Shown: positions 8,369-60,855 of the stretch, one piece after another
Layout: each line of letters begins with the position of its first letter
Position numbering within the stretch: position 1 is the stretch's first letter
Origin: an uncultured Hyphomicrobiales bacterium
Lineage (GTDB): Bacteria > Bacteroidota > Ignavibacteria > Kapaibacteriales > UBA2268
NCBI GenBank assembly: GCA_964577665.1
Contig: CAZOBD010000004.1
Span: 81 to 64,080 of the forward strand
DNA: 64,000 nt
Direction: 5' to 3'
Made by a program: the position numbers and the translations under genes
Notes under the pieces: model-generated
Databases searched by the model: none
What the model was told of the DNA's origin: nothing
Seen by the model: the letters and a program-made list of their open reading frames with translations, nothing else

Positions 8369-9856
8369 ATGGAACAGACCGCTGACCTGACCATAGACGT
8401 AAACTCTTATACGCTGACAGCCTTCTTGCTCTATATGCTGATTATAGTAGGCATAGGCATATTCTCTTCAAAATTTTCCTCCAAAGGTATGGCAAACTTT
8501 TTTCTCGGGGGAAGGAAGCTAAACAGATACGTTGTTGCCCTGTCTGCGGTAGTATCAGGACGCAGCGCGTGGCTGCTTTTAGGTTTTACGGGAATGGCTT
8601 ACGTTAGGGGTATGTCGGCAATATGGGCTGCCGCCGGCTATATTGTCTCTGAGTTTCTCCTTTTCTTTTTTTACGCCCCCAGACTGAGAAATTTTACCGA
8701 AAAAAGAGACTGCATAACTCTCCCCGATTTCTTTGCAGAAAGGTTTAATGACAGAACCGGTTCTCTGCGCATAATATTGGTTTCCGTAATAGTTCTCTTT
8801 ATGGTTAGTTATGTATCGGCGCAGTTCGTCGGCGGCGGTAAGGCATTCGCTTCCAGTTTCGGATTAAGCAATACGGCAGGAGTTTTAATAACTGCCGGAA
8901 TAGTTTTGTTTTACACCGTAATAGGAGGATTCCTCGCAGTCAGCCTTACCGATATGCTGCAGGCAATTTTCATGATTATAGCTCTTTTAGTCCTGCCGGT
9001 TGTAGCTATTGTAAATTTCGGCGGCTGGGAGCTAATAACAGCCGAGCTTGCCCGCACGGACACATTATTCTTAGATCCTCTGGCACTTTCGGGAGGGGCG
9101 CTTATCGGATTTCTCGGTATCGGATTGGGTTCGCCGGGTAATCCTCACATTTTAATCCGGTATATGTCCATAGAAAATTCAAAACATCTGAAAGCATCAG
9201 CATATATAGGTACTATCTGGAATGTGCTGATGGCTGTCGGAGCTTTGTTTATCGGTATAGCAGGCAGAGCATATTTTCCTGATTCGGCTTTGCTGCCGGG
9301 TAATGATCCCGAAAACCTGTATCCTCTTCTTGCCGAGAACCAGCTTCATCCCATACTTTTCGGTATGATAATATCCTCAATTTTTGCTGCAATAATGTCC
9401 ACATGCGATTCACAGCTTCTGGTAGCCGCTTCCAGTATTGTAAGGGATATTTATCAAAAGGTTATCAAAAGAGGCAGAGTAGTTTCAGAAAAAACTCTAA
9501 TGATCCTAAGCAGAGTGATGGTAACTGTGCTGGTAGTAGCAGCGCTGATTCTTGGAATGCTTGCTCAAGAGCTGGTTTTCTGGCTCGTTTTATTTGCCTG
9601 GGCAGGTCTTGGAGCTGCTATAGGCCCCGTTTCCATTTTAGCACTGTTCTGGAAGAAGACAAGCTTGTCAGCAGTAACAGCCGGTATGCTGACAGGTACT
9701 TTTACCGTTATTATATGGTATTACATACCGTCTTTGAATGAACTGATGTATGAGCTGGTACCCGCATTTTTTCTAAGTACAGCCGTTACAATTATTGTCA
9801 GCTTGTTTACAAAGGCTCCTGAAAATTCCGAAGCAATGTTTAAGGATATGGAATAA
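8369..9856 (+). CDS. Sodium:solute symporter family (SSF; PutP/PanF-like) transporter
   Basis: 495 aa polytopic membrane protein with SSF-like blocks (GGRKLNRYVVALSAVVSGRSAWLLLG, GGFLAVSLTDMLQA). Confidence 0.75.
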   Translation: MEQTADLTIDVNSYTLTAFLLYMLIIVGIGIFSSKFSSKGMANFFLGGRKLNRYVVALSAVVSGRSAWLLLGFTGMAYVRGMSAIWAAAGYIVSEFLLFFFYAPRLRNFTEKRDCITLPDFFAERFNDRTGSLRIILVSVIVLFMVSYVSAQFVGGGKAFASSFGLSNTAGVLITAGIVLFYTVIGGFLAVSLTDMLQAIFMIIALLVLPVVAIVNFGGWELITAELARTDTLFLDPLALSGGALIGFLGIGLGSPGNPHILIRYMSIENSKHLKASAYIGTIWNVLMAVGALFIGIAGRAYFPDSALLPGNDPENLYPLLAENQLHPILFGMIISSIFAAIMSTCDSQLLVAASSIVRDIYQKVIKRGRVVSEKTLMILSRVMVTVLVVAALILGMLAQELVFWLVLFAWAGLGAAIGPVSILALFWKKTSLSAVTAGMLTGTFTVIIWYYIPSLNELMYELVPAFFLSTAVTIIVSLFTKAPENSEAMFKDME

Positions 9857-9861
9857 CCATG

Positions 9862-10030
9862 ATTTAGGAAAATCACACAAAGGGATGATTATTTTTAAGC
9901 AAGATGTCAGACACCTTTGAGGTGTCGGACATCTGATTATCAAAAAACATCCCCTCTTGAGAGCAATGACCTAACAATTGGAGGAAAAAGATGTCCAACA
10001 TCTGGCAGATGTCGGACATCTGAAGGGCAA
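9862..10030. repeat. Intergenic palindromic repeat cluster: one copy of module C (…CCATGATTTAGGAAAATCACACAAAGGGATGATTAT…, minus orientation) plus two GATGTCNNACATC-type hairpins (9903-9933, 9990-10020)
   Basis: Module C recurs at 12790-12835, 12955-12998, 13673-13715, 37506-37548 and 53140-53180; hairpin arms recur at 37287, 49363, 56667 and 60817. Confidence 0.7.
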
Positions 10031-12589: not shown

Positions 12590-12975
12590 CGGTCCCATTT
12601 TTTTTTCATCTGTTTATTTTATGCCCCACCCTAACCCTCCCCAAAGGGAGGGAATTCAATGATATTGCTCCCTCCCCTTGGGGAAAGCCGGGGTGGGGTC
12701 TCATACGGTTTTTCATCTCATTCCCAAACTCCGATTTGGGAATGTACTTTTCTTTCAAAACTCTGTTTTGCATTAACTCGTAAACAATCAACTCCTTGTG
12801 TGATTTTCCAAAATCATGGGCGTTTCATCTGTTTATATTCGATCCCTCCCCGGTACTCCCTTACAAGAAAAGGAAGGAGAAATATTATTGAAGCCCCTTA
12901 TTTATAAGGGGGTTTGGGGGATCTCTTCTATCGATTTCATTTTTTTTCCAAATATTCATCTCCTTGTGTGATTTC
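12590..12975. repeat. Mosaic of palindromic repeat modules: G/C-rich hairpin (CCCCACCC…GGGTGGGG with nested CCCTCCCC…GGGAGGG), module A (TCCCAAACTCCGATTTGGGA), two copies of module C
   Basis: 12700-12780 is the reverse complement of 53181-53260; modules shared with loci at 13522, 37160 and 53140; unusually G+C-rich for this AT-rich genome. Confidence 0.75.
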
Positions 12976-13521
12976 TTAAATCATGGGGGTTTCATATAGC
13001 ACACTCTGCCTTGTGCAGTTAATATTCAAACTGAGAATATCTGGACGAGAGTAATGTCCTGAAGGATCGAAATTTTGTCTTTCTCTTAAGACGGAGCTTA
13101 AATCCAGTTCAGCCGTGATAAATGCTTCTTTTTCACAAACAGGTTCGATTATCCATGATCCATCAGGGGCAGCAATGCAGGAACCGCCGCCGGCAGGCAT
13201 ACTTTTCATTTTAGATTTTATCAAAGATGCATGAGGCAGTTCGTCTGAAATATTTTTTGTAAAGAGTATTGAAGAAGCAGAAATAACAAAACTCCGCGAC
13301 TCTTTTGCAATAAAGCGGGCAATGTCATAAGTATTTTCCAGACTGCCGGGCCAGACAGCTATATGGACATTTATACCCTGAGCATACATTGCGCTTCTTG
13401 CCAGCGGCATCCAGTTTTCCCAGCAGTTAAGCCCCCAGAGAGTAAAACCGTCAAGCTTATGTGCCGCGATACCGCTGCCGTCACCTATCCCCCATACGAG
13501 TCTTTCTTCATAAGTAGGCAT
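12976..13521 (-). pseudogene. Truncated nitrilase / carbon-nitrogen hydrolase (C-terminal part only, catalytic Cys block [11 protein letters not shown] present, N-terminal Glu/Lys blocks missing)
   Basis: 181-aa ORF begins at conserved internal [12 protein letters not shown] block; the ATG lies exactly at the edge of repeat module B and the last 5 codons are encoded by repeat module C. Confidence 0.6.
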
Positions 13522-13724
13522 GGGGTTTCAGATGGACTCCACTTTTAAAGTGGAGTCCATCTACGAATAAATTTTTCACCATCCCCTTGGGGAGGGCTTG
13601 GGTGGGGTCTCTTACGGTTTTTCTTTTACAATACGATTTTTCCTTCAATATATGGCAAATCTACCAAAAATAATCATCCCCTTGTGTGATTTTCCCAAAT
13701 CATGGTTGTTTCATTTAAAGAAAT
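13522..13724. repeat. Mosaic repeat cluster: module B perfect palindrome AGATGGACTCCACTTTTAAAGTGGAGTCCATCT, G-rich module (CCCCTTGGGGAGGGCTTGGGTGGGG), module C
   Basis: Module B recurs at 37467-37499; G-rich module recurs at 12678 and (inverted) 53395-53440. Confidence 0.75.
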
Positions 13725-22887: not shown

Positions 22888-24255
22888 TTAACCCTCCTTC
22901 ACCACTTTGTAAGTTGTTACATTGCCACCACATATAAGTCTTATAAAGTAAATGCCGTTAGGGTATAAGGAAAGATTAATTGTTAAAGAACTACTGTCTA
23001 TTAAATCTTCCAATAAAATAGTCCCATTGTTATTGATTATTTCATAATATTGATTAGTGCTACTGCAGTTAACTTCAATATTAATTGTTCCATTAGTTGG
23101 ATTGGGATAAAAAGTACTATCAACAATAGAATCATCATTAATGCTACTAGGTTCCCATCGAGCTTTTACAACAGCGCAGATATCATACTTACCCGCTCCA
23201 ATATATTTATTGTTTTTTGAAACATCTAAGGACTTTGCTGAAGTAATAATATTATTGTACTGATATGTAATTATCTCATTTAATATGTCATATACAAATA
23301 CATCTCTATAAGCAGAAATACCAATAACTAAATATCTATCATCAATTGAATATGCAATCGATCTAAAGCAGGTATCTTTTTTAGTTATGGTCTGTTTTAA
23401 TTCTCTTTTTTCAAAATCCCATATTTTTACGGGTCCACCTGCAGATGCCAGATATTTTCCGTCGTGGGAAAAACAGATGTCCCTGATAGCGTAATCGTGT
23501 GTGCCGAGAATACCTTCGTATTTCATTGGGTTTGTATTAAAAATGTGAATTGGGCTATTTGAACCATTTTGATAAAATGTGCTAACAACAAAGTGTTCCT
23601 CGTCAGGTGAGAATTTTATTTTTCCATACTCCGTATCGGTTGATTGATATGCAATTTCATCAGTTCCTAAATCCCAAATACATATTTTACATTTTAATTG
23701 CCCGATACGTGCAACAACAGCTAAGTATTTGCTACTCGGTGAAATATCTATTGATTTAAAGGAAACCGAATCTTCATCAATAGTGAATGTTTTAACTAAT
23801 TTACCTGTTTCCGTTTCAAATAAATATGCAGAGTTATTTTTATAGCTGCCGTCATAATAGTAGAAGTTACCTCCTGCAACTGCAATAATGCTGCCGTCAG
23901 AATTAAAGTCAACACAATTGGTATAATTTGGCTGCTCAAATTCTCTAATCGAGTCTCCTGTCTCAACATCAAAAAGCTTCGGGTTCCTGTAATCAGCCGC
24001 AACCGCAAGATACCTGCTGTCGGGAGAAAACTTTACGCGGTTTATTTGTACACCTAATTCCTTTACCCACAGCACATCGGGGTCATCCTGTGCAAAAGCA
24101 GGAAGAGAAAGAAGAAGTAAAAGCGCCGCCGCCAGAAGAAGGGATGATCCCCCCAGCCCCCTTATAAATAAGAGTGTGTTTGAATTGCTGTGCTCTGATT
24201 TTGTTTTCAGAGCTGCCTTCTCCACCTTTACCAGAAAACTTTTTTTTGTAAACAT
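22888..24255 (-). CDS. WD40-like/beta-propeller repeat protein with T9SS C-terminal sorting domain (paralog A)
   Basis: Repeated …(K)FSPD(S/E)RYLA…/…FSHDGKYLASAGG…KIWDFEKRELK blocks; CTD …FYPNPTNGTINIEV…IYFIRLICGGNVTTYKVVKEG; start placed at MFTKKSF (conserved with paralog B) rather than ORF-track 24285. Confidence 0.6.
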   Translation of the reverse strand: MFTKKSFLVKVEKAALKTKSEHSNSNTLLFIRGLGGSSLLLAAALLLLLSLPAFAQDDPDVLWVKELGVQINRVKFSPDSRYLAVAADYRNPKLFDVETGDSIREFEQPNYTNCVDFNSDGSIIAVAGGNFYYYDGSYKNNSAYLFETETGKLVKTFTIDEDSVSFKSIDISPSSKYLAVVARIGQLKCKICIWDLGTDEIAYQSTDTEYGKIKFSPDEEHFVVSTFYQNGSNSPIHIFNTNPMKYEGILGTHDYAIRDICFSHDGKYLASAGGPVKIWDFEKRELKQTITKKDTCFRSIAYSIDDRYLVIGISAYRDVFVYDILNEIITYQYNNIITSAKSLDVSKNNKYIGAGKYDICAVVKARWEPSSINDDSIVDSTFYPNPTNGTINIEVNCSSTNQYYEIINNNGTILLEDLIDSSSLTINLSLYPNGIYFIRLICGGNVTTYKVVKEG

Positions 24256-24382
24256 AGTTTTTCCTTTTATTTTTTCAAAAAACACACCAATTATAAATAT
24301 AATAAAAAATAAGATAAATAGTTACAAAATAAAAAACATAAAGAATCGTAAAATTATTAAAGCTACAAAATAAGGAATTTTT

Positions 24383-24983: not shown

Positions 24984-25018
24984 ATCATTATACTTCCGGT
25001 ATTATAAATTGTTTTTCC

Positions 25019-25060
25019 GGCGGTTAGAATTGTGCTTCTGGCGGTTAGAATTGTGCTTCT
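25019..25060. repeat. Perfect 2x21-bp tandem direct repeat GGCGGTTAGAATTGTGCTTCT
   Basis: Direct reading; lies just downstream of vapC. Confidence 0.8.
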
Positions 25061-25203
25061 AAGGGCTTAGTTGAACGATTCTGTCTATTTATCATATATT
25101 TTTCTTCCTTTATCAAGCAATTCTCTTAGTTTATCATTCAATTCTATCTGTTTATCAAACAATCCATGGCAATATAATTTTTTTTATTTTCGGAAGAAGG
25201 CTC

Positions 25204-26565
25204 TTATCTCTTCACAATAATTTTAATTGTTTTAAAAAAATCGCTGCAAGAAATATTACAGAAGTAAGTGCCTGATGATAATCCGTCTGCATTTATGTTC
25301 ATTGTATTTAAACCTGCTTCAAGATACCCCTCAAATACTTTTTTAACTAATTGACCGTTGATATTATTTAAATCAATATTAGTTATGCCGTTATGTGGAA
25401 GGTTGAAACTTATAACAGCTTCATTTGTTATTGGGTTAGGATAAATAATGCTGTTGTTTTCATTAAAAGGTTCCTCAATAATACTTGGTACCCATTTTGC
25501 ATTTAATAATAATACTCTATATCCATAACCGGAACCAATATATTGATTATCTGATGAAACATCTAACGATAGTGGTGTACCTTTTACAGAATTAAGATGA
25601 TAAACATATTCAGTATTATTTATATCATATATAAAAACATCTCTATAAAATAAAAAACCCATAACAAGAAAATTGTCATCCATAGAATATGCAATCGATC
25701 CAAAGCCGGTATCTTTTTTAGTTATAGTCTGTTTTAATTCTCTTTTTTCAAAATCCCAAATCTTAACATCTCCCGCTGCAGATGCCAGATATTTCCCGTC
25801 GTGGGAAAAACAGATGTCGGCGATAGCATAATCATGTGAGCCGAGAATACCTTCGTTTTTCATTGGGTTTGTAGAAAATACATAGATATAGTTGGTTTTT
25901 GATTCTGGATATGGGTAGGTTTGGCATATAACGAAATGCTGATCATCAGGTGAAAATACAACTTTACTTATATACTGATAATTGCTTTGATATATTATTT
26001 CATTTGAAATTAAATTCCAAATTTTTATTAAATACCTATTTGTTCCACTTTTAAAAACAGCCGCTAATAATTCACCATTGTGTGAAATATCAATTGAAGT
26101 AACATAAACTGAATCTTCATTCAGATCAATTTTTTTTAATTCATCTCCAGTTTCCACACTATATATATTGATGTAATCATTATATCCGGCGCTTGCTAAA
26201 AGAGAGCCGTCATCAGTAAAATCAAGTGTATTTGTTCCTCCACCAATAAATTCTCTAATCAAATCACCTGTTTCTACATCGAAAAGCTTCGGATTCCTGT
26301 AATCAGCCGCAACCGCAAGATACCTGCTGTCGGGAGAAAATTTCACGCAGTTGATTTTCACACCTAATTCCTTTACCCACACCACATCGGGGTCATCCTG
26401 TGCAAAAGCAGGAAGAGAAAGAAGAAGTAAAAGCGCCGCCGCCAGAAGAAGGGATGATCCCCCCAGCCCCCTTATAAATAAGAGTGTGTTTGAATTGCTG
26501 TGCTCTGATTTTGTTTTCAGAGCTGCCTTCTCCACCTTTACCAGAAAACTTTTTTTTGTAAACAT
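25204..26565 (-). CDS. WD40-like/beta-propeller repeat protein with T9SS C-terminal sorting domain (paralog B)
   Basis: First ~75 codons and ~210 bp of 5' region essentially identical at DNA level to paralog A (23975-24262 vs 26275-26572); second near-identical tract 23380-23530 vs 25695-25845; CTD …IYPNPITNEAVISFNL…TYFCNISCSDFFKTIKIIVKR. Confidence 0.6.
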   Translation of the reverse strand: MFTKKSFLVKVEKAALKTKSEHSNSNTLLFIRGLGGSSLLLAAALLLLLSLPAFAQDDPDVVWVKELGVKINCVKFSPDSRYLAVAADYRNPKLFDVETGDLIREFIGGGTNTLDFTDDGSLLASAGYNDYINIYSVETGDELKKIDLNEDSVYVTSIDISHNGELLAAVFKSGTNRYLIKIWNLISNEIIYQSNYQYISKVVFSPDDQHFVICQTYPYPESKTNYIYVFSTNPMKNEGILGSHDYAIADICFSHDGKYLASAAGDVKIWDFEKRELKQTITKKDTGFGSIAYSMDDNFLVMGFLFYRDVFIYDINNTEYVYHLNSVKGTPLSLDVSSDNQYIGSGYGYRVLLLNAKWVPSIIEEPFNENNSIIYPNPITNEAVISFNLPHNGITNIDLNNINGQLVKKVFEGYLEAGLNTMNINADGLSSGTYFCNISCSDFFKTIKIIVKR

Positions 26566-26639
26566 ATAAACCTCCACGGGATAAATTTTCAATTTTGCAA
26601 TTTACAATTTTCAATCAATTTAACAATGATTCAATTTTC

Positions 26640-37159: not shown

Positions 37160-37580
37160 TTCAATGGGTGAACACGAAGGTTCGCCACTACATGCCAAAC
37201 AGAACAACGTAGGGGCAGACCTGCGTGTCTGCCCTGAAAAAGAACACGCAGTTCTATGGGCGAACACGCAGGTTCGCTACATTAAAGATGTCCAACATCT
37301 TTTTCCTCCATACTGTGCATCCCCTCCCCAAGAGGGGATTAAAGGGTGTGTTCCTTATACGTGAGATTCTGAAACAAGTTCAGAATGACATCCATGATTT
37401 CTTTTTGCATCTCATTCACAAACTCCGATTTGGGAATGTACTTTTCTTTCAAAACTCTGGGTTTTTAGATGGACTCCACTTTAAAAGTGGAGTCCATCTA
37501 CGAATAATCATCCCTTTGAGTGATTTTCCCGAATCATGGATGTTTTGTCTGAATTTTAAGTCTAAATGCCGAAGCTGCAG
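37160..37580. repeat. Largest mosaic repeat cluster (~420 bp): modules E, GATGTCCAACATC hairpin, G/C-rich CCCCTCCCCAAGAGGGGA, F (CTGAAACAAGTTCAG), A, B, C concatenated
   Basis: 37310-37395 is the reverse complement of 53395-53490; module B identical to 13530-13563; module E to 32905-32970; module C to 13673 etc. Confidence 0.8.
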
Positions 37581-48278: not shown

Positions 48279-49337
<1,059 letters not shown>

Positions 49338-49362
49338 AAACTATCTGAAAAGAATAATTAAA

Positions 49363-49410
49363 ATGTCCGGTATAATTACATGCCGGACATTTTTTTATTT
49401 TTTATTTATT
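49363..49410 (+). terminator. Rho-independent terminator after gap: ATGTCCGG-N12-CCGGACAT hairpin + T-run
   Basis: Perfect 8-bp stem followed by TTTTTTTATTTTTTATTT; stem belongs to the GATGTCCGGCATC palindrome family. Confidence 0.7.
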
Positions 49411-49547
49411 TAGTAAGTTTTCCACACAATTTTGTGGACAAAATGTGGAAAAGCATATCCTCATGTTGAAATATTTTACTTTGCCGTTCAAGAAAATTTA
49501 TTTTACTTGCCTGCATCTATTTGTCAAAAAAATAATCTGAATAATAA

Positions 49548-52500
49548 ATGAGAGATTTTGTACATCTTCATAATCATACGCATTTTTCCCTGCTGGATTC
49601 CATAACCGAACCAAAACAGCTGATTGAAGCCGCTCTAAAAGATGAGCAAAAAGCCATTGCTCTTACAGATCACGGAGTTATGTTCGGTTGTTTTCAATTT
49701 AATAAAATTGCGGGTAAACTTGGTATTAAGCCCATCTTAGGCATGGAAGCTTACGTCGCAAACGGGAGCAGGTTCGATAAGATTTCAGGAAAAGATAAAA
49801 ATAAAAAGAAACGCAATTATTTTCATCTGGTTCTGCTTGCAAAAGATATGCAGGGCTACAAAAATTTGATGAAGCTCACATCTCTCGGTCACACAGAAGG
49901 TTTTTACTATAAACCGCGGATTGACCGCGAGCTGCTTGAAAAATATCACGATGGCTTGATTGCAACAGGAGCCTGCATGGCAGGTGAAATAAATCACTGG
50001 CTTATTCAAAATGATATGGAAAAAGCTCGCGAAGCCGCAGTTTTTTATAGAGATCTTTTTGGTGATGATTTTTACATCGAGCTTCAGAACCATAACCTTA
50101 AAGAAGATGTATTTATATTAAACAGAGGTCCGAAACTTGCGGCAGAGCTTGGAATTAAAACGGTATGTACTAATGACGTACACTATCTGGAAAAAGAACA
50201 TGCCATTGCCCATAATGTTTATCTACTAATAAAAGATGTTAAGGGCAATGCAGAAAATATTGACATTAACAAACTTCGGTACCGTACTCCTGAGATGTAC
50301 TTTAAAACCCGAGAGGAAATGAACAAGCTCTTTGGGGATTATCCTGAAGCACTGGACAGTACGGTAGAAATTGCAGAAAAATGTAATCTCACATTTGAAA
50401 GCAAGCTTTTTATGCCTGAGTTTCCCATACCGAAAGAATCTTCTTCCACTACACTCGAAGAATATCTTGAAGAACTGACATTCAACGGCTTGCGAAAAAA
50501 ATACAAAGAAATAACTCCCGAAATAGAAGAACGCGCCCGTATGGAGCTTGATATAATCAAAAAAATGAAATTCCCGGGATATTTTCTTATTGTGCAGGAT
50601 TTTATCCGTGCCGCCAAGGAAATGGGAGTTCGCGTCGGTCCCGGACGCGGTTCCGCAGCAGGAAGTATTGTAGCTTATGCGCTGGATATTACAAATGTGG
50701 ACCCTCTGCCCTACAATCTTCTCTTCGAGCGCTTCCTTAATCCGGAAAGAGTAACTATGCCCGATATTGACATCGACTTCAACGATGAAAAACGGGATCT
50801 GGTAATCAATTACGTGAAAAGACTTTACGGAGAAAATGCCGTAGCCATGATTATTACTTTCAATAAACTTTCCACAAAAGCTGTTTTAAAAGATGTAGGC
50901 AGAGTGCTCGGCATTCATCACAGCGAGATCAATGACATAACTAAAAAAATTCCTGTGGTGCAGGGCAAAGTCACCCCTCTTGAGGATGCCCTTGAGCTTC
51001 CCGAACTTCAACATCTGAAAGACAGCAAAGATAAAAAAATCAGAGATTTAATAAGATACGGAATCCTTCTTGAAAATAAAAACAGAAATCCTGGCACTCA
51101 TGCAGCGGGAGTTGTCATTGCGCCCGATGAAATCACGAAATTTGTTCCCCTTTACCAAAACAGCAAGTCAAAAACTCAAAGCATTCCCGTTGCCACTCAA
51201 TACACCATGGAAGAAGTGGAAGGTTCCGGTCTTCTGAAAATGGATTTTCTGGGACTGCAAACACTTTCCATCATAGATCACACTCTGCAATTAATCGAAA
51301 AAAATTATGACAAGAAAATAGACCTTGACGCTATAGATTTCCACGACCCCAAGACTTATCAGCTTCTTTCGGAAGGCAGAACCCTTTCGGTATTTCAGTT
51401 CGAATCAAAGGGTATGCAGGAGTATCTTAAGCAGCTTAAGCCGCATAATCTGGAAGAAATCACGGCTATGAACGCACTTTACAGACCGGGACCAATGGAA
51501 AATATTCCTGAGTTTATTGCGAGAAAACACGGCAAAAACAAAATAGAATATCTCCATCCTATCATGGAGAAAGCATTAAAAACTACTTACGGAATAATAG
51601 TCTATCAAGAGCAGGTAATGCAGCTTGCACGGGACATTGCAGGTTTTTCCCTTGGAGGTGCTGATATTTTACGGCGCGCTATGGGTAAGAAAAAAGTTGC
51701 CGTTATGGAGCAGCAAAAACCGGTTTTCATAGAAGGAGCAGCAAAAAACGGCATAGATAAAAAAACTGCAGAAGAGATTTTCCATTTGATAGAAAAATTT
51801 GCCAAATACGGTTTCAATAAATCTCACTCTCTGGCTTATTCATATCTTGCATTCCAGACTGCATGGCTAAAAACTCATTATCCCGGTGAGTTTTTAGCTG
51901 CAAATATGAGCGCCGAAATCTCCGATCAGGATAAAATCGTAATGCTGATTGACGAAGCAAAGCATTTTGGAATTGAAGTAGTACATCCGGATGTCAACAA
52001 ATCTCTCGGTCAGTTCTATTCCAAAGATAAGAAAATCTTCTTCGGACTTACCGGCATAAAGAATGTGGGTACTCCTGCCGTAAACAGCATTATCAAAGCC
52101 AGAAACGAAAAGACATTTGAATCATTCTTTGATTTTGTTTCCAGGGTCGATACAAAACTTGTTAACAAAAAATCTTTAGAAGCGCTTGTATGCTCAGGAG
52201 CTTTTGACAGTCTGCATGAAGGAAGACGGGCAGCCTTATTCGCTTCTGTTGAATCTGCACTGGATTATGCCAGAGCGGTTTCTCAAAATGAAATGATACA
52301 GATGGACAGTCTTTTCGGCGAAAGCGCCGAAGCTGACCTCAGCGAACCGGAACTGCCGGAAATTGAGGAATGGCCTGAAATGATACGTCTGGAACATGAA
52401 AAAGAGTATCTGAATTTTTATATAAGCGGACATCCCCTGATGAATTTTTCTCCCTATGTAAACTCACTTTCTACGTGTAAAATATCAAAGTTTCCACCTG

Positions 52501-53021
52501 AGCTAAGCGGCGGTAAAATTTCGATATGCGGAATTGTTACCGGCATATCAAGAAAAATTGATAAAAACAACAATTCTATCGCATTTGTAACAATCGAGGA
52601 TTTCGACGGAAAAGCCGAATGTAAGTTCTGGAGCGAGACTTATAAAAAATTTGGATGGATGCTGGAAGAAGACAAAGTTCTTCTTATTGAAGGAACGGCT
52701 GAGTATGACGGTGAAAAGCTGAGTCTTACTGCAAGCAATGTAGCAGAGCCGGTGGAAGCCGCAAAAGATAGAGTAGAAGGATATGATATTTGGATAAACC
52801 TGAACGGCGACAGCGATGCCGAGAAAATCAAGAGTTTTCAGAAGCTGTGTAACAGTCCGGACACAACAGGCACTGTTATGTTTCACCTTCGCAATAAAGA
52901 AAATAATTTCTCCAAAGATTATATAGCTTATGATATTAATATAGATTTTGAAGAGAAAACGGTAAAAGCAATTGTCGATATTTTCGGAAAGAATTTTGTA
53001 CGATTCTTAAAACATGTTTAA
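49548..53021 (+). CDS. dnaE: DNA polymerase III alpha subunit
   Basis: 1157 aa; PHP domain start FVHLHNHTHFSLLDS; polymerase core and C-terminal OB-fold region of expected length. Confidence 0.9.
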   Translation: MRDFVHLHNHTHFSLLDSITEPKQLIEAALKDEQKAIALTDHGVMFGCFQFNKIAGKLGIKPILGMEAYVANGSRFDKISGKDKNKKKRNYFHLVLLAKDMQGYKNLMKLTSLGHTEGFYYKPRIDRELLEKYHDGLIATGACMAGEINHWLIQNDMEKAREAAVFYRDLFGDDFYIELQNHNLKEDVFILNRGPKLAAELGIKTVCTNDVHYLEKEHAIAHNVYLLIKDVKGNAENIDINKLRYRTPEMYFKTREEMNKLFGDYPEALDSTVEIAEKCNLTFESKLFMPEFPIPKESSSTTLEEYLEELTFNGLRKKYKEITPEIEERARMELDIIKKMKFPGYFLIVQDFIRAAKEMGVRVGPGRGSAAGSIVAYALDITNVDPLPYNLLFERFLNPERVTMPDIDIDFNDEKRDLVINYVKRLYGENAVAMIITFNKLSTKAVLKDVGRVLGIHHSEINDITKKIPVVQGKVTPLEDALELPELQHLKDSKDKKIRDLIRYGILLENKNRNPGTHAAGVVIAPDEITKFVPLYQNSKSKTQSIPVATQYTMEEVEGSGLLKMDFLGLQTLSIIDHTLQLIEKNYDKKIDLDAIDFHDPKTYQLLSEGRTLSVFQFESKGMQEYLKQLKPHNLEEITAMNALYRPGPMENIPEFIARKHGKNKIEYLHPIMEKALKTTYGIIVYQEQVMQLARDIAGFSLGGADILRRAMGKKKVAVMEQQKPVFIEGAAKNGIDKKTAEEIFHLIEKFAKYGFNKSHSLAYSYLAFQTAWLKTHYPGEFLAANMSAEISDQDKIVMLIDEAKHFGIEVVHPDVNKSLGQFYSKDKKIFFGLTGIKNVGTPAVNSIIKARNEKTFESFFDFVSRVDTKLVNKKSLEALVCSGAFDSLHEGRRAALFASVESALDYARAVSQNEMIQMDSLFGESAEADLSEPELPEIEEWPEMIRLEHEKEYLNFYISGHPLMNFSPYVNSLSTCKISKFPPELSGGKISICGIVTGISRKIDKNNNSIAFVTIEDFDGKAECKFWSETYKKFGWMLEEDKVLLIEGTAEYDGEKLSLTASNVAEPVEAAKDRVEGYDIWINLNGDSDAEKIKSFQKLCNSPDTTGTVMFHLRNKENNFSKDYIAYDINIDFEEKTVKAIVDIFGKNFVRFLKHV

Positions 53022-53139
53022 ATTTACACTTTTGAAAAGGCAAAAACGTAATATTTTATAGAAACTTCCATTTTTCAGGAAGATTTACGATATTTATAAA
53101 GCGGCTGATATCTTGAAATAAATAGATTAATAATAAATC

Positions 53140-53490
53140 AGCCATGATTAGGGAAATCACACAAGGAGATGATTATTTTAGAGTTAATGCAAAACAGAGT
53201 TTTGAAAGAAAAGTACATTCCCAAATCGGAGTTTGGGAATGAGATGTAAAATGTCATTCAAAGTACATTCCCAAATCGGAGTTTGGGAATGAGATGTAAA
53301 ATGTCATTCAAAGTACATTCCCAAATCGGAGTTCGGGAATGAGATGTAAAATGTCATTCTGTCCCTGTGATGAACTTGTTTCAGTATTGTTTCAGAATCT
53401 CACGGATGAGAGGGACACACCCCTTAATCACCTCTTGGGGAGGGGATATTCTTAACTTGAGATGCTGAAACAAGTTCAGCATGACAGCCA
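53140..53490. repeat. Mosaic repeat cluster incl. module C (inverted), 3x50-bp perfect tandem array (53211-53360) each with module A palindrome TCCCAAATCGGAGTTTGGGA, G-rich module, module F
   Basis: Direct reading; 53181-53260 = reverse complement of 12700-12780; 53395-53490 = reverse complement of 37310-37395. Confidence 0.8.
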
Positions 53491-53526
53491 AACGATTTTC
53501 AAAGGTAAAATACAAAAAATAAACAG

Positions 53527-53745
53527 ATGAAACAAAAAAATATTATTGATGATAAAATGAGCAATACAATGAAAAATATATTATCTGCCGTTTTCGCCAT
53601 TATCGTCGCACTTATTTTTCTTTATTTATTAGGCTTTTTGCTAAAAGTGGCATTTCAAGTTTTTTTTAGTGTTCTTGGTGTTATCATAGTGGTTCTAATA
53701 GCTCTGCCGGTTTATGTAATCTTAAGAAAAAAATTATTCAGATAA
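53527..53745 (+). CDS. Hypothetical small membrane protein
   Basis: 72 aa with two hydrophobic helices. Confidence 0.3.
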   Translation: MKQKNIIDDKMSNTMKNILSAVFAIIVALIFLYLLGFLLKVAFQVFFSVLGVIIVVLIALPVYVILRKKLFR

Positions 53746-53758
53746 TCGGATTTATTAT

Positions 53759-55015
53759 ATGAAAAGGTATATTCTGCTGGTTTTAATAGCTTTATCGCCT
53801 TTGGGCATAAAAGCCGAATATAACGAAACTACCGTAGAGCTTGCCCGCACTTTCGGAAAAGACATTTTTGACCTCAATGGAGTCCCCTACCTGCAGCCAA
53901 TGGTCGAAGCCGTTAATGCCACATCTAATTCCCGTTTTTTCAATCAGGCTTATGTGCCCAAAAAAGTTGACAAACCCTATTACCGCGTCAGTCTGCACGG
54001 CATGTTAGGCTTTACCCCTGACAGTAAAAAAACTTATTCGCCTAAGCTTCCTGCCGAGCCTTATAACGTAGATGAATTATCAAAATACTTAATAATTGAT
54101 GAAACAGGTATCAATATTATCAATCAGGATACCGCTGCGCTGCTGAATTATTTTTTTAAGACTGTACTTTACAACGGACTGGAGAGCGGCGCCATACCTC
54201 CTGAGCCGGATAAAGCCGCTACCGTGATGGGATATCAGCCGAACACAAAATTTACATTTTCGAGGGATTCCCTCAATAAACTTGTCAAAGAGCATCCGCT
54301 CTACAGCTTAATCAACGCAATAAACCCTGAATACAGCCAGATTATTCTCGATGCCATATCAGATTTCCCCGAATCTTTTTCTTTAGCAGACGGTGGGAAT
54401 GTAAACTCTGTTTTCGCTTTTGTTCCCCAGTTTGAAATAGGATCTTTGTGGGGAACTGAGCTTTTAATTCGTTTTGTGCCGCCTGTTTATCTTGGAGAAA
54501 ATATAGGCGATTTTGCCTTCTGGGGTATTGGTCTGAAGCACAGTATTTCACAGTACTTTTATGAAGATGAAACCGACAGACCCTTCGATCTGGCAGTGCA
54601 GGCTGTTTATCAAGGCACTCATCTGGAAAATACAATAGGTGTTACAAATGCAGAACTGACGGCAGATGCTGCTATATTAAACTTTAATATCCACGGAAGC
54701 AAACATTTTGAAGGTATTGTTGACATATATACAGGTATATCTGCAGATTACATAAGTATCGATTCGGAATATAAATATTATATACCAATCGAGCAGCAAA
54801 AACAGCTCGGCTTGGTCGATCCCGTTACTTTAGAGCCCAATCCCCCGGAATATCCGGGCGATACCAAGCCTCAGCATGCAAATATATTATTAGATGATTT
54901 TAATGTTAAATGGATAATCGGTTTAGCAAAGCAAATCGGTCCGATTGCTGTTTATGCAGATTTTAACTTGAGCAAATTCAATATTTTCACAGGGGGAATA
55001 GAATACAGATTTTAA
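53759..55015 (+). CDS. Hypothetical secreted protein, possible outer-membrane beta-barrel
   Basis: Signal peptide MKRYILLVLIALSPLGIKA; C-terminal …GGIEYRF (terminal Phe). Confidence 0.4.
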   Translation: MKRYILLVLIALSPLGIKAEYNETTVELARTFGKDIFDLNGVPYLQPMVEAVNATSNSRFFNQAYVPKKVDKPYYRVSLHGMLGFTPDSKKTYSPKLPAEPYNVDELSKYLIIDETGINIINQDTAALLNYFFKTVLYNGLESGAIPPEPDKAATVMGYQPNTKFTFSRDSLNKLVKEHPLYSLINAINPEYSQIILDAISDFPESFSLADGGNVNSVFAFVPQFEIGSLWGTELLIRFVPPVYLGENIGDFAFWGIGLKHSISQYFYEDETDRPFDLAVQAVYQGTHLENTIGVTNAELTADAAILNFNIHGSKHFEGIVDIYTGISADYISIDSEYKYYIPIEQQKQLGLVDPVTLEPNPPEYPGDTKPQHANILLDDFNVKWIIGLAKQIGPIAVYADFNLSKFNIFTGGIEYRF

Positions 55016-55024
55016 GGTTTTATT

Positions 55025-55315
55025 ATGTCAGTTACAGATTATCAAATAAATGCTGCCGTAGAACTTGCAAAAAAATACGGCATAAACAAATTGCTGCTTT
55101 TTGGCAGCGCATTAACTGATCCTGAAAATGCTAAAGATCTTGACCTCGGCATCGAAGGTTTGGAAGGAATGAAATTTTTTGAATTTGGTGGTATTTTGGA
55201 AAATTTAATAAAAATTCCTGTTGATATCGTCGATTTGACCTTTGAAGACAGATTCATCAGATATATAAAAAAAACAGGTAAATTCATATATGACTCATCG
55301 GGAAAAACTAATTGA
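55025..55315 (+). CDS. Minimal nucleotidyltransferase (MNT/HI0073-like antitoxin)
   Basis: 96 aa; NTase fold motif LLFGSALTDPENAKDLDLGIE (GS…D.D). Confidence 0.65.
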   Translation: MSVTDYQINAAVELAKKYGINKLLLFGSALTDPENAKDLDLGIEGLEGMKFFEFGGILENLIKIPVDIVDLTFEDRFIRYIKKTGKFIYDSSGKTN

Positions 55316-55751
55316 AGAAATTGAAACAGAACTTGAATATTTAAGCCAAACTGTTCAGGCAGTTAACGATTTACTGATTTCGATAGAGAGTAGAAAACCG
55401 TCAAACATAGAAATAGCAGCCTCAGCACAGTTTCTATCTCAGTTTTATAATGGATTGGAAAACATTTTTATTAGAATTATCAAATTTAAAAATATTCCTT
55501 TACCTAAATCTGATATTTGGCATTCAGAGCTTCTAAATTTATTTTATATCGACAGTGATGTAGTTAAAATACCTATTATAAAGACAGAAGAGTTTACAAT
55601 TCTAATTTCCTATAAAAAAATAAGACATGTTATTCGGCAGGGCTATCATTATCATTTACATTGGGATAGAATTAGAATAGCCTTGATGAACATGCCTGAA
55701 TTTTATGAAAATATGAAAAAAAAATTTTTGAATTATATAAAATCAATTTAA
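55290..55751 (+). CDS. HEPN-domain partner protein (HI0074/nucleotidyltransferase substrate-binding-like)
   Basis: 153 aa; overlaps MNT gene by 26 bp; candidate Rx4-6H motif in IRQGYHYH; size and arrangement typical of MNT-HEPN pairs. Confidence 0.5.
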   Translation: MTHREKLIEEIETELEYLSQTVQAVNDLLISIESRKPSNIEIAASAQFLSQFYNGLENIFIRIIKFKNIPLPKSDIWHSELLNLFYIDSDVVKIPIIKTEEFTILISYKKIRHVIRQGYHYHLHWDRIRIALMNMPEFYENMKKKFLNYIKSI

Positions 55752-55755
55752 AATT

Positions 55756-56640
55756 ATGGCAACAATTATCGATGGAAAAGTAATTTCAAAAGAAATTAAA
55801 GAAGAAATCAAAGAAAAGACAAAACTTTTGCTGGAAGAAAAGGGTATCCGCCCCGGTCTGGCAGTTCTGCTTGTCGGGGAAAATCCGGCATCTCAGGTGT
55901 ATGTACGTTCAAAAGAAAAGACAGCTTCCGAGCTCGGCTTTTATTCTCTGGTTGAAAGAGTGCCGGATACAATTTCAGAAAAAGAAGTCCTGGACTATGT
56001 GCAGAAATGGAACAAGGATGAAAAAATTCACGGCATTTTGGTACAGCTCCCGCTGCCGAAGCATATCAACGAAAGCAAGGTAGTTAACTCCATCAAGCCA
56101 TCTAAAGACGTTGACGGTTTTCATCCCGAAAATATCGGCAGGCTGGTAATAGGTCTTCCCGGTTTTATTCCCTGCACCCCCCGCGGCATTATGGAAATGC
56201 TGAAACGCACTGAAATCGAAACTTCCGGCAAGCATGTGGTGGTTGCAGGCAGAAGCAACATTGTCGGCAAGCCGATTGCAAATCTGCTCTATCAAAAAAA
56301 TGAAAATGCAAACTCTATTGTAACAATAGTTCATACCGGCGCAAGAGACATACGCCCCTATACTTTGCAGGCAGATATATTAATTGCGGCTATGGGTGTA
56401 CCCGAAAGAATAAAGGCTGAAGATGTAAGAAAAGGCACAGTCGTAATAGACGTCGGCATAAACCGCGTGGAAGACCCGACCCGCGAAAAAGGCTACCGGC
56501 TCACCGGCGACGTTGCATACAAAGAAGTATGCAAAAAGGCATCTGCAATTACACCCGTGCCGGGAGGAGTAGGCGTAATGACCGTGGCTATGCTCATGCA
56601 GAACACTTATGACGCCGCGGCAGGTCTTTTGGAGTATTGA
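55756..56640 (+). CDS. folD: Bifunctional methylenetetrahydrofolate dehydrogenase/cyclohydrolase
   Basis: 294 aa; MATIIDGKVISKEIKEEIKE…PGLAVLLVGENPASQVYVRSK… and GRSNIVGKP NADP-binding region. Confidence 0.9.
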   Translation: MATIIDGKVISKEIKEEIKEKTKLLLEEKGIRPGLAVLLVGENPASQVYVRSKEKTASELGFYSLVERVPDTISEKEVLDYVQKWNKDEKIHGILVQLPLPKHINESKVVNSIKPSKDVDGFHPENIGRLVIGLPGFIPCTPRGIMEMLKRTEIETSGKHVVVAGRSNIVGKPIANLLYQKNENANSIVTIVHTGARDIRPYTLQADILIAAMGVPERIKAEDVRKGTVVIDVGINRVEDPTREKGYRLTGDVAYKEVCKKASAITPVPGGVGVMTVAMLMQNTYDAAAGLLEY

Positions 56641-56666
56641 TTTTGTACAATTACAGATTGATTGCA

Positions 56667-56708
56667 GATGTCCGGCATCACTTAGATGTCGGGCATCTTT
56701 TTTTTTCA
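56667..56708 (+). terminator. Rho-independent terminator after folD: GATGTCCGGCATC-ACTTA-GATGTCGGGCATC + T9
   Basis: Near-perfect 13-bp stem followed by TTTTTTTTT. Confidence 0.7.
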
Positions 56709-60764: not shown

Positions 60765-60816
60765 TATTATGATGAATTTCTCTTCCGAATTTGATTTGGA
60801 GGATATTAGTTTATGT

Positions 60817-60855
60817 GATGTCCAACATCTTTCTGGTGTTGGACATCTTTTTTTC
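60817..60855. terminator. Bidirectional rho-independent terminator between convergent pepD and mutS2: GATGTCCAACATC-TTTCTG-GTGTTGGACATC + T8
   Basis: 12-bp stem, T-run on + strand; same palindrome family as 56667 and 49363. Confidence 0.65.

Follow-up and report, generated by a model that had tools for sequence, protein, structure and literature searches.

A threefold tandem array in a REP-like repeat cluster downstream of dnaE in an Ignavibacteria/Kapabacteria-like bacterium probably reflects local duplication

Repetitive extragenic palindromic (REP) sequences were divided by Di Nocera et al. (2013, PMC3733652) into superfamilies tagged GTAG or CGTC. In the description given there, the tag of CGTC REPs often reads TGTC or CCTC, the stems are 8-9 bp long and start with A-T followed by T-A, the loops measure 4-5 nt and a 3-nt tail is close to CCA. 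Head-to-head dimers predominate, and no dedicated transposase is reported for these elements in that description, which places them in Chlorobi, Bacteroidetes, Thermotogae, Spirochaetes and Proteobacteria and includes the RPE of Rickettsia and the dRS3 of Neisseria (PMC3733652). According to the same source, tandem reiteration of REP units along with flanking DNA is frequent. Here we analyze a case of such reiteration in a 64-kb stretch of contig CAZOBD010000004.1 (hereafter the window), which appears to belong to a metagenome-assembled genome (MAG) of an uncultured Ignavibacteria/Kapabacteria-like bacterium. At 53.2 kb of the window, between dnaE and an operon encoding a small membrane protein and a DUF6588 protein, three copies of a 50-nt unit, each with a palindrome designated Q, lie within a cluster resembling bacterial interspersed mosaic elements (BIMEs). 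The array is a head-to-tail REP cluster of an already described kind, and it was probably formed by a recent local duplication within the REP cluster.

Tandem Repeats Finder (TRF) delimited the array to 53210-53359, with 3.0 abutting head-to-tail copies (period 50, 99% matches, score 293), and a repeat search of the window gave identities of 100, 100 and 98% for units 1, 2 and 3. The sole difference between copies is the T to C change at 53334 in unit 3. Both methods thus bear out the original prediction of three head-to-tail, palindrome-bearing 50-bp copies with a single T-to-C change in the third; only its coordinates (53211-53360) were shifted by one position. The recent expansion proposed at the same time agrees with the near-identity of the copies. 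Each unit contains the 26-nt palindrome Q, CATTCCCAAA-TCGGAG-TTTGGGAATG, of which the 20-nt palindrome noticed earlier forms the core; read head-first, Q is TCTC-ATTCCCAAA-CTCCGA-TTTGGGAAT-G. In order, the unit is made up of the last 6 nt of the Q flank, the Q hairpin, a GAGA tag, the 7-nt TGTAAAA and TGTCATTC. The last of these, which closes every tandem unit, corresponds to the head (TGTC) and the first four stem bases of a neighbouring REP, designated T, which is placed head-to-head with Q at a distance of 7 nt. The unit breaks off inside T (TGTCATTC|TG), and its borders do not match the borders of the modules. Since the unit crosses the border between Q and T, it can be inferred that these two were already juxtaposed head-to-head when a local duplication produced the array, which did not result from repeated insertions of a mobile unit. 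The 50-nt unit as such is not the mobile module.

The distribution of related sequences within the window concerns the same question. A search with the 20-mer core allowing up to three mismatches gave five matches with at most one mismatch, against 0.01 expected from shuffled sequences: 53219, 53269 and 53319 on the plus strand, and 12722-12741 (exact) and 37416-37435 (one mismatch) on the minus strand. All three Q loci (five copies) are intergenic. Inverted relatives at 12.7 and 37.4 kb had been predicted and are indeed present, but the recurring sequence is a segment of 57-104 nt and not the 50-bp unit; it begins 15-62 nt upstream of the array and takes in only the first 42 nt of the unit (53148-53251 versus 12709-12812, 104 nt at 93%; 53195-53251 versus 37403-37459, 57 nt at 96%); the repeat search found a further 42-nt match of the unit start at 98% identity. 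The last 8-9 nt of the unit are part of a different module. The family element is therefore not the unit, as had been supposed, but the Q module, i.e. the hairpin with a conserved 21-nt 5' flank.

Five intergenic regions of the window contain seven modules (P, Q, R, S, T, U and V) in shuffled arrangement, with modules shared in differing order at 9.85, 12.6-13.7, 37.3-37.6 and 53.1-53.5 kb. An alignment of three regions gave the orders P-Q-V at 12.7 kb, P-R-Q-T-U-S at 37.4 kb and P-Q-Q-Q-T'-U-T at 53.2 kb, and other mosaics led by P are found at 9.85 and 13.6 kb. The mosaic that had been proposed downstream of dnaE is thus confirmed, and the open reading frame (ORF) upstream of it carries all DnaE domains. 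The T consensus is TGTC-ATKCTGAA-CTTGT-TTCAGMAT-CTC, with an 8-bp stem ATKCTGAA/TTCAGMAT. In the same place, the stem of the T copy adjacent to the array is interrupted by two 11-nt insertions. The intact T copy further downstream is inverted with respect to the disrupted one, so that the two form a REPIN-like pair around U and a long hairpin in the minimum-energy fold. The coordinates of these and the other features are collected in Table 1.

Table 1. Features of the repeat cluster at 53.2 kb, its relatives elsewhere in the window and its flanking genes
Feature	Coordinates	Strand	Description	Basis
Tandem unit 1	53210..53259	+	AAAGTACATTCCCAAATCGGAGTTTGGGAATGAGATGTAAAATGTCATTC	TRF, repeat search
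Tandem unit 2	53260..53309	+	Identical to unit 1	
Tandem unit 3	53310..53359	+	T to C at 53334, giving an A-C stem mismatch	
Q hairpin, copy 1	53216..53241	+	10-bp arms, 6-nt loop; CTC tag = GAG at 53242-53244	
Q hairpin, copies 2 and 3	53266-53291 and 53316-53341	+		
P module, non-hairpin repeat opening each mosaic in the window	53133..53179	+	CCATGATTnGGGAAATCACACAAGGAGATGATTATT	
Conserved 5' flank of Q module	53180..53215	+	GAGTTAATGCAAAACAGAGTTTTGAAAGAAAAGTA; only the last 6 nt inside the tandem unit	
Disrupted T REP (CGTC-type)	53352..53401	+	TGTC-ATTCTG[+11 nt]AA-CTTGT-TTCAG[+11 nt]AAT-CTC	Compared with the intact 37363-37390 copy
U module, short G+C-rich hairpin	53411..53447	+	GGGACACACCCCTTAATCACCTCTTGGGGAGGGGAT; 92% match to 37319-37355	
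Intact T REP	53459..53486	-	TGTC-ATGCTGAA-CTTGT-TTCAGCAT-CTC; fold -11 kcal/mol	
Single-copy P+Q mosaic	12709..12812	-	Q hairpin 12719-12744; module V next instead of T	
Single-copy Q module	37403..37459	-	Hairpin 37413-37438, one stem mismatch	
Intact T REP	37363-37390	-	19 nt from the head of the 37.4-kb Q	
dnaE (DNA polymerase III alpha), upstream gene	49548..53021	+	Pfam PHP, DNA_pol3_alpha, finger, HHH_6 and OB domains	
Downstream genes: 72-aa hydrophobic ORF, DUF6588 protein	53527..55015	+		

Module P (CCATGATTnGGGAAAATCACACAAGGnGATGATTATT) is a 40-nt repeat without significant fold (z = 0.2). Its six copies (9848-9896(+), 12782-12828(-), 12950-12996(-), 13668-13714(-), 37502-37548(-) and 53133-53179(+)) are distributed over the five intergenic regions, always in sense orientation and at or just past the stop codon of a gene. 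The module was not found in the loci fetched from other genomes. Three P copies are preceded by ATGAAACnnCCATGA, a mini-ORF encoding MK-x-P-stop. At 12976-13521(-), a truncated carbon-nitrogen hydrolase gene is present which covers Pfam profile positions 120-251 of 256, its N-terminal half being missing; it has repeat mosaics on both sides, and a P module provides its final codons and stop. Rearrangement at the repeats has probably turned it into a pseudogene. Modules S (AGATGTCCRACATCT inverted dimers) and R (TAGATGGACTCCACTTTTAAAGTGGAGTCCATCTA) are further palindromic families (9901-10023, 37286-37310, 56665-56700 and 60815-60850; 13530-13563 and 37466-37499), some of whose members lie outside the P-led mosaics.

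The Q hairpin is not restricted to this host. The pattern CATTCCCAAA-N6-TTTGGGAATG specifies 20 bases, for which, by our own calculation, about one chance match would be expected in 596 Gb. Among the matches listed, it occurs in at least 71 stretches of genome contigs from 27 assemblies. By their labels, the majority are Ignavibacteria; among the others are a Bacteroidetes MAG, Cloacimonadota (one of them a single-cell genome), Calditrichota, Marinimicrobia, Kuenenia and further Planctomycetota, Armatimonadota and Hydrogenedentota. A proteobacterial label is attached to a few Q-bearing bins, which may be mis-binned. Only two viral contigs carry the pattern. The stem is identical throughout, and the loops are lineage-specific: CTGGAG in Ignavibacteria, TCGGAA in the Bacteroidetes MAG, GAGGGC in Cloacimonadota and Marinimicrobia, TTNNAA in one bin and TCGGAG in the window. 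Also among the matches listed, 77 of 85 copies in other genomes are intergenic, and the remaining "genic" copies lie in short ORFs, some of which are themselves made of repeats (e.g. in the fetched loci L070 and L072; L numbers denote such loci). String searches of the literature for the Q motif and for spurious peptides derived from it returned nothing relevant.

The anchor GGAAYGAG occurs 162 times in 0.6 Mb, compared with 13 occurrences of the reversed control motif, and 105 of the 162 are part of stems of at least 7 bp. Some of these stems are variants with compensated inner parts (CGTTCCCAAGC/GCTTGGGAACG, CGTTCCGACGC/GCGTCGGAACG and CGTTCCCAATC/GATTGGGAACG), and variant inner stems also occur with GGAACGAG. 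Most positions of the Q stem were preselected by the search pattern, leaving only pairs 13-18, 4-27 and 12-19 informative for covariation; in 86 distinct Q sequences, pair 13-18 was CG in 37, UA in 33, UG in 8, GC in 4 and unpaired in 4, while double changes were seen at pair 4-27 (AU 79, GC 5) and pair 12-19 (AU 81, GC 4, UA 1). Beside Q copies in L072 (2355-2400) and L048 (7110-7150), we also observed sister hairpins with the same outer frame and different compensated inner stems, for example GTTCCGACGC-GGA-GCGTCGGAACGAG and CCTTACCAAA-TTCCGA-TTTGGTAAGG.

With the REP and BIME sequences of E. coli and Pseudomonas, the Q hairpin shares the character of a short (20-40 nt) imperfect palindrome with a stable stem-loop, present extragenically in many dispersed copies and built into mosaics with other short motifs that differ by locus; tandem reiteration with flanking DNA, as described in PMC3733652, is a further likeness. 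In contrast to these sequences, Q has no GTAG tag (its head is NCTC), no gene for a REP-associated tyrosine transposase (RAYT) is in view, and the host belongs to the Fibrobacteres-Chlorobi-Bacteroidetes (FCB) group and not to Proteobacteria. All seven modules are unrelated in sequence to the E. coli palindromic unit (PU)/REP motifs.

The CGTC superfamily is closer. In a comparison made by text description only, T fits the CGTC-type REPs feature by feature: a TGTC head, an 8-bp stem starting with A-T/T-A, the 5-nt loop CTTGT and a 3-nt tail, which is CTC in the window and CCA in L031 and L044, the CCA-tailed type of T being found in a Bacteroidetes MAG. Q, a candidate member judged by the same description, resembles the family in its xCTC head (CCTC is a listed variant), its 9-bp stem ATTCCCAAA/TTTGGGAAT starting with ATTCC, its head-to-head pairing with another REP, its Chlorobi/Bacteroidetes-type hosts and the lack of a dedicated transposase. 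Unlike the described members, Q most commonly has the head TCTC (47 of 99 copies, followed by CCTC with 27, ACTC with 15 and GCTC with 10). Its loop takes 6 nt, or 4 nt if the covarying pair 13-18, the 11th, is formed, and the base following the 3' arm is paired (C-G) with the final base of the tag, a C, so that no CCA tail is present.

Some likeness also exists to REPINs, for the two inverted T copies around a short spacer (53352-53486) fold into one long hairpin. One of the two partners is, however, broken by insertions, and no RAYT gene is linked to them. As a rule, REPINs are lineage-specific and passed on vertically; the stem of Q, by contrast, is identical across several phyla.

Tandem reiteration involving the Q motif was detected by TRF in nine further arrays on the fetched loci, originating from four assemblies plus two IMG/VR viral contigs. 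Most of them have a period of 24-31 nt; the one in L052 is a 173-nt two-copy duplication which includes the full hairpin. The short-period arrays reiterate the tag, the tag-proximal arm and part of the loop, reaching at least five copies, and several of them close with one full palindrome (e.g. L072 2404-2565 and L034). Such half-palindrome arrays are located, in other phyla, at L072 2230-2630, L016 2800-3040 (partly masked by a run of N), L034 435-535, L079 9852-9914 and L025 2815-2913. Compared with those of the fetched loci, the array of the window is the sole one of short period to repeat the hairpin as a whole.

Taken as a local duplication, the array would have been formed after the mosaic had been assembled, the likely route being replication slippage or unequal exchange between sister strands, promoted by extrusion of the hairpin. 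The array would have no dedicated function. If the cluster is co-transcribed with dnaE, three stable stem-loops would be added to the 3' untranslated region (UTR) of the mRNA and, like other REPs, they might stabilise its 3' end or act as a partial barrier to transcription. We consider this account, with the local duplication and the conditional role in the dnaE mRNA taken together, rather probable. Some points weigh against it. No microhomology is visible at the borders of the duplication (GAAAGA|AAAGTA and GTCATTC|TGTCCC), and simple slippage is therefore not demonstrated. All mosaics of the window, in all five intergenic regions, are oriented in sense 3' of a gene, which hints at a role at the RNA level that a purely selfish or neutral origin does not predict. 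Finally, both the tandem arrangement and its copy number, three, are seen in a single MAG assembly only.

As for the last point, the tandem arrangement, or at least its copy number, might have been created by a metagenome assembler threading a multi-copy stretch. The host is known only from the MAG contig and from Logan contigs, which in three independent assemblies of the same strain stop 166-176 nt past the dnaE stop codon, exactly at the edge of the repeat cluster (53187-53197), and resume at its other edge (53504), 23 nt before the 72-aa ORF; the 317-nt gap between them consists of multi-copy modules throughout. No other sequence across the region was found: look-ups of exact proteins returned only short Logan contigs breaking at the cluster (the exact DUF6588 protein is on record only from one NCBI contig of 65,068 nt and the Logan assemblies), the ORFs crossing the array are not on record, and metagenome scans with the unique flank and with the extended Q module gave zero hits each. 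Nevertheless, the junction GTCATTC|AAAGTACATT is present nowhere else in the window, hence the array is not a chimera of copies seen there. The private substitution of unit 3 makes a 127-nt k-mer or read at 53209-53335 unique; any read of at least 127 nt spanning these positions would therefore fix the copy number, for which 150-nt reads suffice. Tandem reiteration of REPs is, moreover, common. We regard an assembly artefact as unlikely. At about 7603 of L074, corresponding to about 53150 of the window, P differs by one base between SRR7048224 (ATGATTTGGG) and both the window and SRR7048225 (ATGATTAGGG), indicating closely related strain variants in the source samples.

A different origin would be enzymatic. 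Q could be a non-autonomous mobile hairpin, similar to REPINs or to miniature inverted-repeat transposable elements (MITEs), on which a RAYT-type transposase or another one for single-strand DNA acts, with the arrays as by-products of cleavage and joining at the CTC tag. This would accord with the tag itself, which is invariant and asymmetrically conserved: the 3' arm is followed by an invariant AG in most copies, and the other arm often lacks a matching tag. It would also accord with the combination of one stem in many phyla with lineage-specific loops and with the recurrence of arrays of tag plus tag-proximal arm in other genomes. A motif scan further revealed one RAYT-like tyrosine transposase in an Ignavibacteria MAG (L059 2765-3475(-), JBDTLQ010000006.1), with NHLH and YIHKNP motifs and an NCBIfam REP_Tyr_transpos match of E = 1e-15, which is below the curated cut-off; the protein had no Pfam or PDB hit. 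However, the distance between this gene and a Q copy is 2.7 kb, and the palindromes on its flanks (CGCTGTGTCTCCCGC/GCGGGGACACAGCG) are unrelated to Q. No transposase adjoins any of the 85 Q copies in other genomes, and clustering of 398 neighbouring ORFs revealed no element-specific gene, only proteins with type IX secretion system (T9SS) tails, response regulators and aldehyde dehydrogenase. In the window, the borders of the unit match neither the tag nor the hairpin, and part of the neighbouring REP is included in the unit. Target-site duplications are not visible, and CGTC-type REPs are described in PMC3733652 as having no dedicated transposase. An enzymatic product therefore appears rather improbable. 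As for a MITE in particular, the three Q copies are flanked by other modules and not by a duplicated target, and no direct repeat surrounds the array.

A bolder version of the enzymatic origin extends to the whole family. Q (xCTC-ATTCCCAAA...TTTGGGAAT) and its GGAACGAG-type relatives would then represent an uncatalogued, tag-bearing REP class with a stem identical across phyla, and the half-palindrome arrays (24-31-nt period, ending in one full palindrome) would be the footprint of an unrecognised, conserved enzyme processing or mobilising single-stranded DNA, the 3x50 array of the window being an unusual whole-hairpin product. We find this proposal distinctly doubtful.

It is likewise improbable that the array is a functional RNA or a regulatory element, be it a structured 3' UTR, a small RNA such as a protein sponge whose loops contain GGA, a terminator or an insulator separating dnaE from the downstream operon, or a phase-variable spacer. 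The region 53120-53530 folds better than shuffled sequences (z = -4.7), the Q RNA with intact stem reaches -14.9 kcal/mol (z = -3.7), its loop UCGGAG includes GGA, and the sense placement of the mosaics described above might be read in the same way. Yet the only substitution of the array disrupts the stem and is uncompensated, costing one pair and raising the energy from -14.9 to -10.7 kcal/mol. Loops vary across genomes and often lack GGA (TTGTAA, GAGGGC, TTACAA), and the orientation towards transcription is random, with 13 same-sense and 11 antisense copies between co-directional genes, 9 between convergent and 5 between divergent ones; a CsrA-type sponge is ruled out by these two observations. 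Rfam 15 gave no hits at the gathering score in the whole window, and a scan by E-value of 53000-53560 returned noise only, the best match being Yfr21 (E = 0.2, 23.5 bits versus a threshold of 100 bits). As for termination, unit 1 is terminator-like on the minus strand, but no intrinsic terminator (G+C-rich stem plus U-tract) was found within the array on the plus strand, that of dnaE, where a U-tract is missing, nor in the other units on the minus strand; the terminator-like orientation fits only one of the three loci. The suggestion that the array acts as a phase-variable spacer for the downstream genes found no support: there is no promoter-like site in or upstream of it, and a 50-nt unit is of atypical size for contingency loci.

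Two further candidates can be dismissed briefly. Although its direct repeats each contain a palindrome, the array is not a CRISPR array, as had been stated from the outset, for it has no spacers (the period of 50 equals the unit length) and only three units, the palindrome is also dispersed singly, and no cas-like genes are present among the seven flanking genes at 48339-56640, a stretch reaching about 5 kb upstream of the array and 3 kb downstream of it. A coding sequence is ruled out as well, all ORFs crossing the cluster being at most 44 aa long and the 50-nt period shifting the reading frame.

Downstream of the DUF6588 gene lie an MNT/HepT toxin-antitoxin pair and folD, and gap is also among the flanking genes. 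Homologues of the DUF6588 protein are encoded in MAGs labelled Ignavibacteria, Kapabacteria or Bacteroidetes; the closest orthologues (76% and 70% identity) are located in a different gene neighbourhood, not syntenic with dnaE, and a small ORF precedes the DUF6588 gene in the relatives L076 and L077 too. Elsewhere in the window, two paralogues encoding WD40 beta-propellers with T9SS sorting tails (22888-24285(-) and 25204-26592(-)) share 300 nt at 95% (23938-24237 versus 26248-26547) and 258 nt at 85%, which suggests recent duplication or gene conversion, and two 21-nt tandem arrays of 2.6 and 3.6 copies lie between them (25007-25163). A perfect 12-nt array of 5.2 copies (CTTTTTCTGGTG) occupies 800-861, within overlapping ORFs at 742-1268.

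In annotations, REP/BIME-like repeat cluster is the proper label for the array and its neighbours, and not CRISPR, small RNA or coding sequence. Spurious ORFs arise from the region (e.g. IPKSEFGNE, MLNLFQHL), which should also be regarded as an assembly-fragile spot of the MAG. On a broader scale, one REP-like stem with lineage-specific loops is common to Ignavibacteria, Bacteroidetes, Cloacimonadota, Calditrichota and others, and parts of it tend to become reiterated in tandem. Should the pattern of reiteration reflect the action of an enzyme and not slippage, it would be relevant to how REPs of the CGTC type, which have no transposase of their own, spread.

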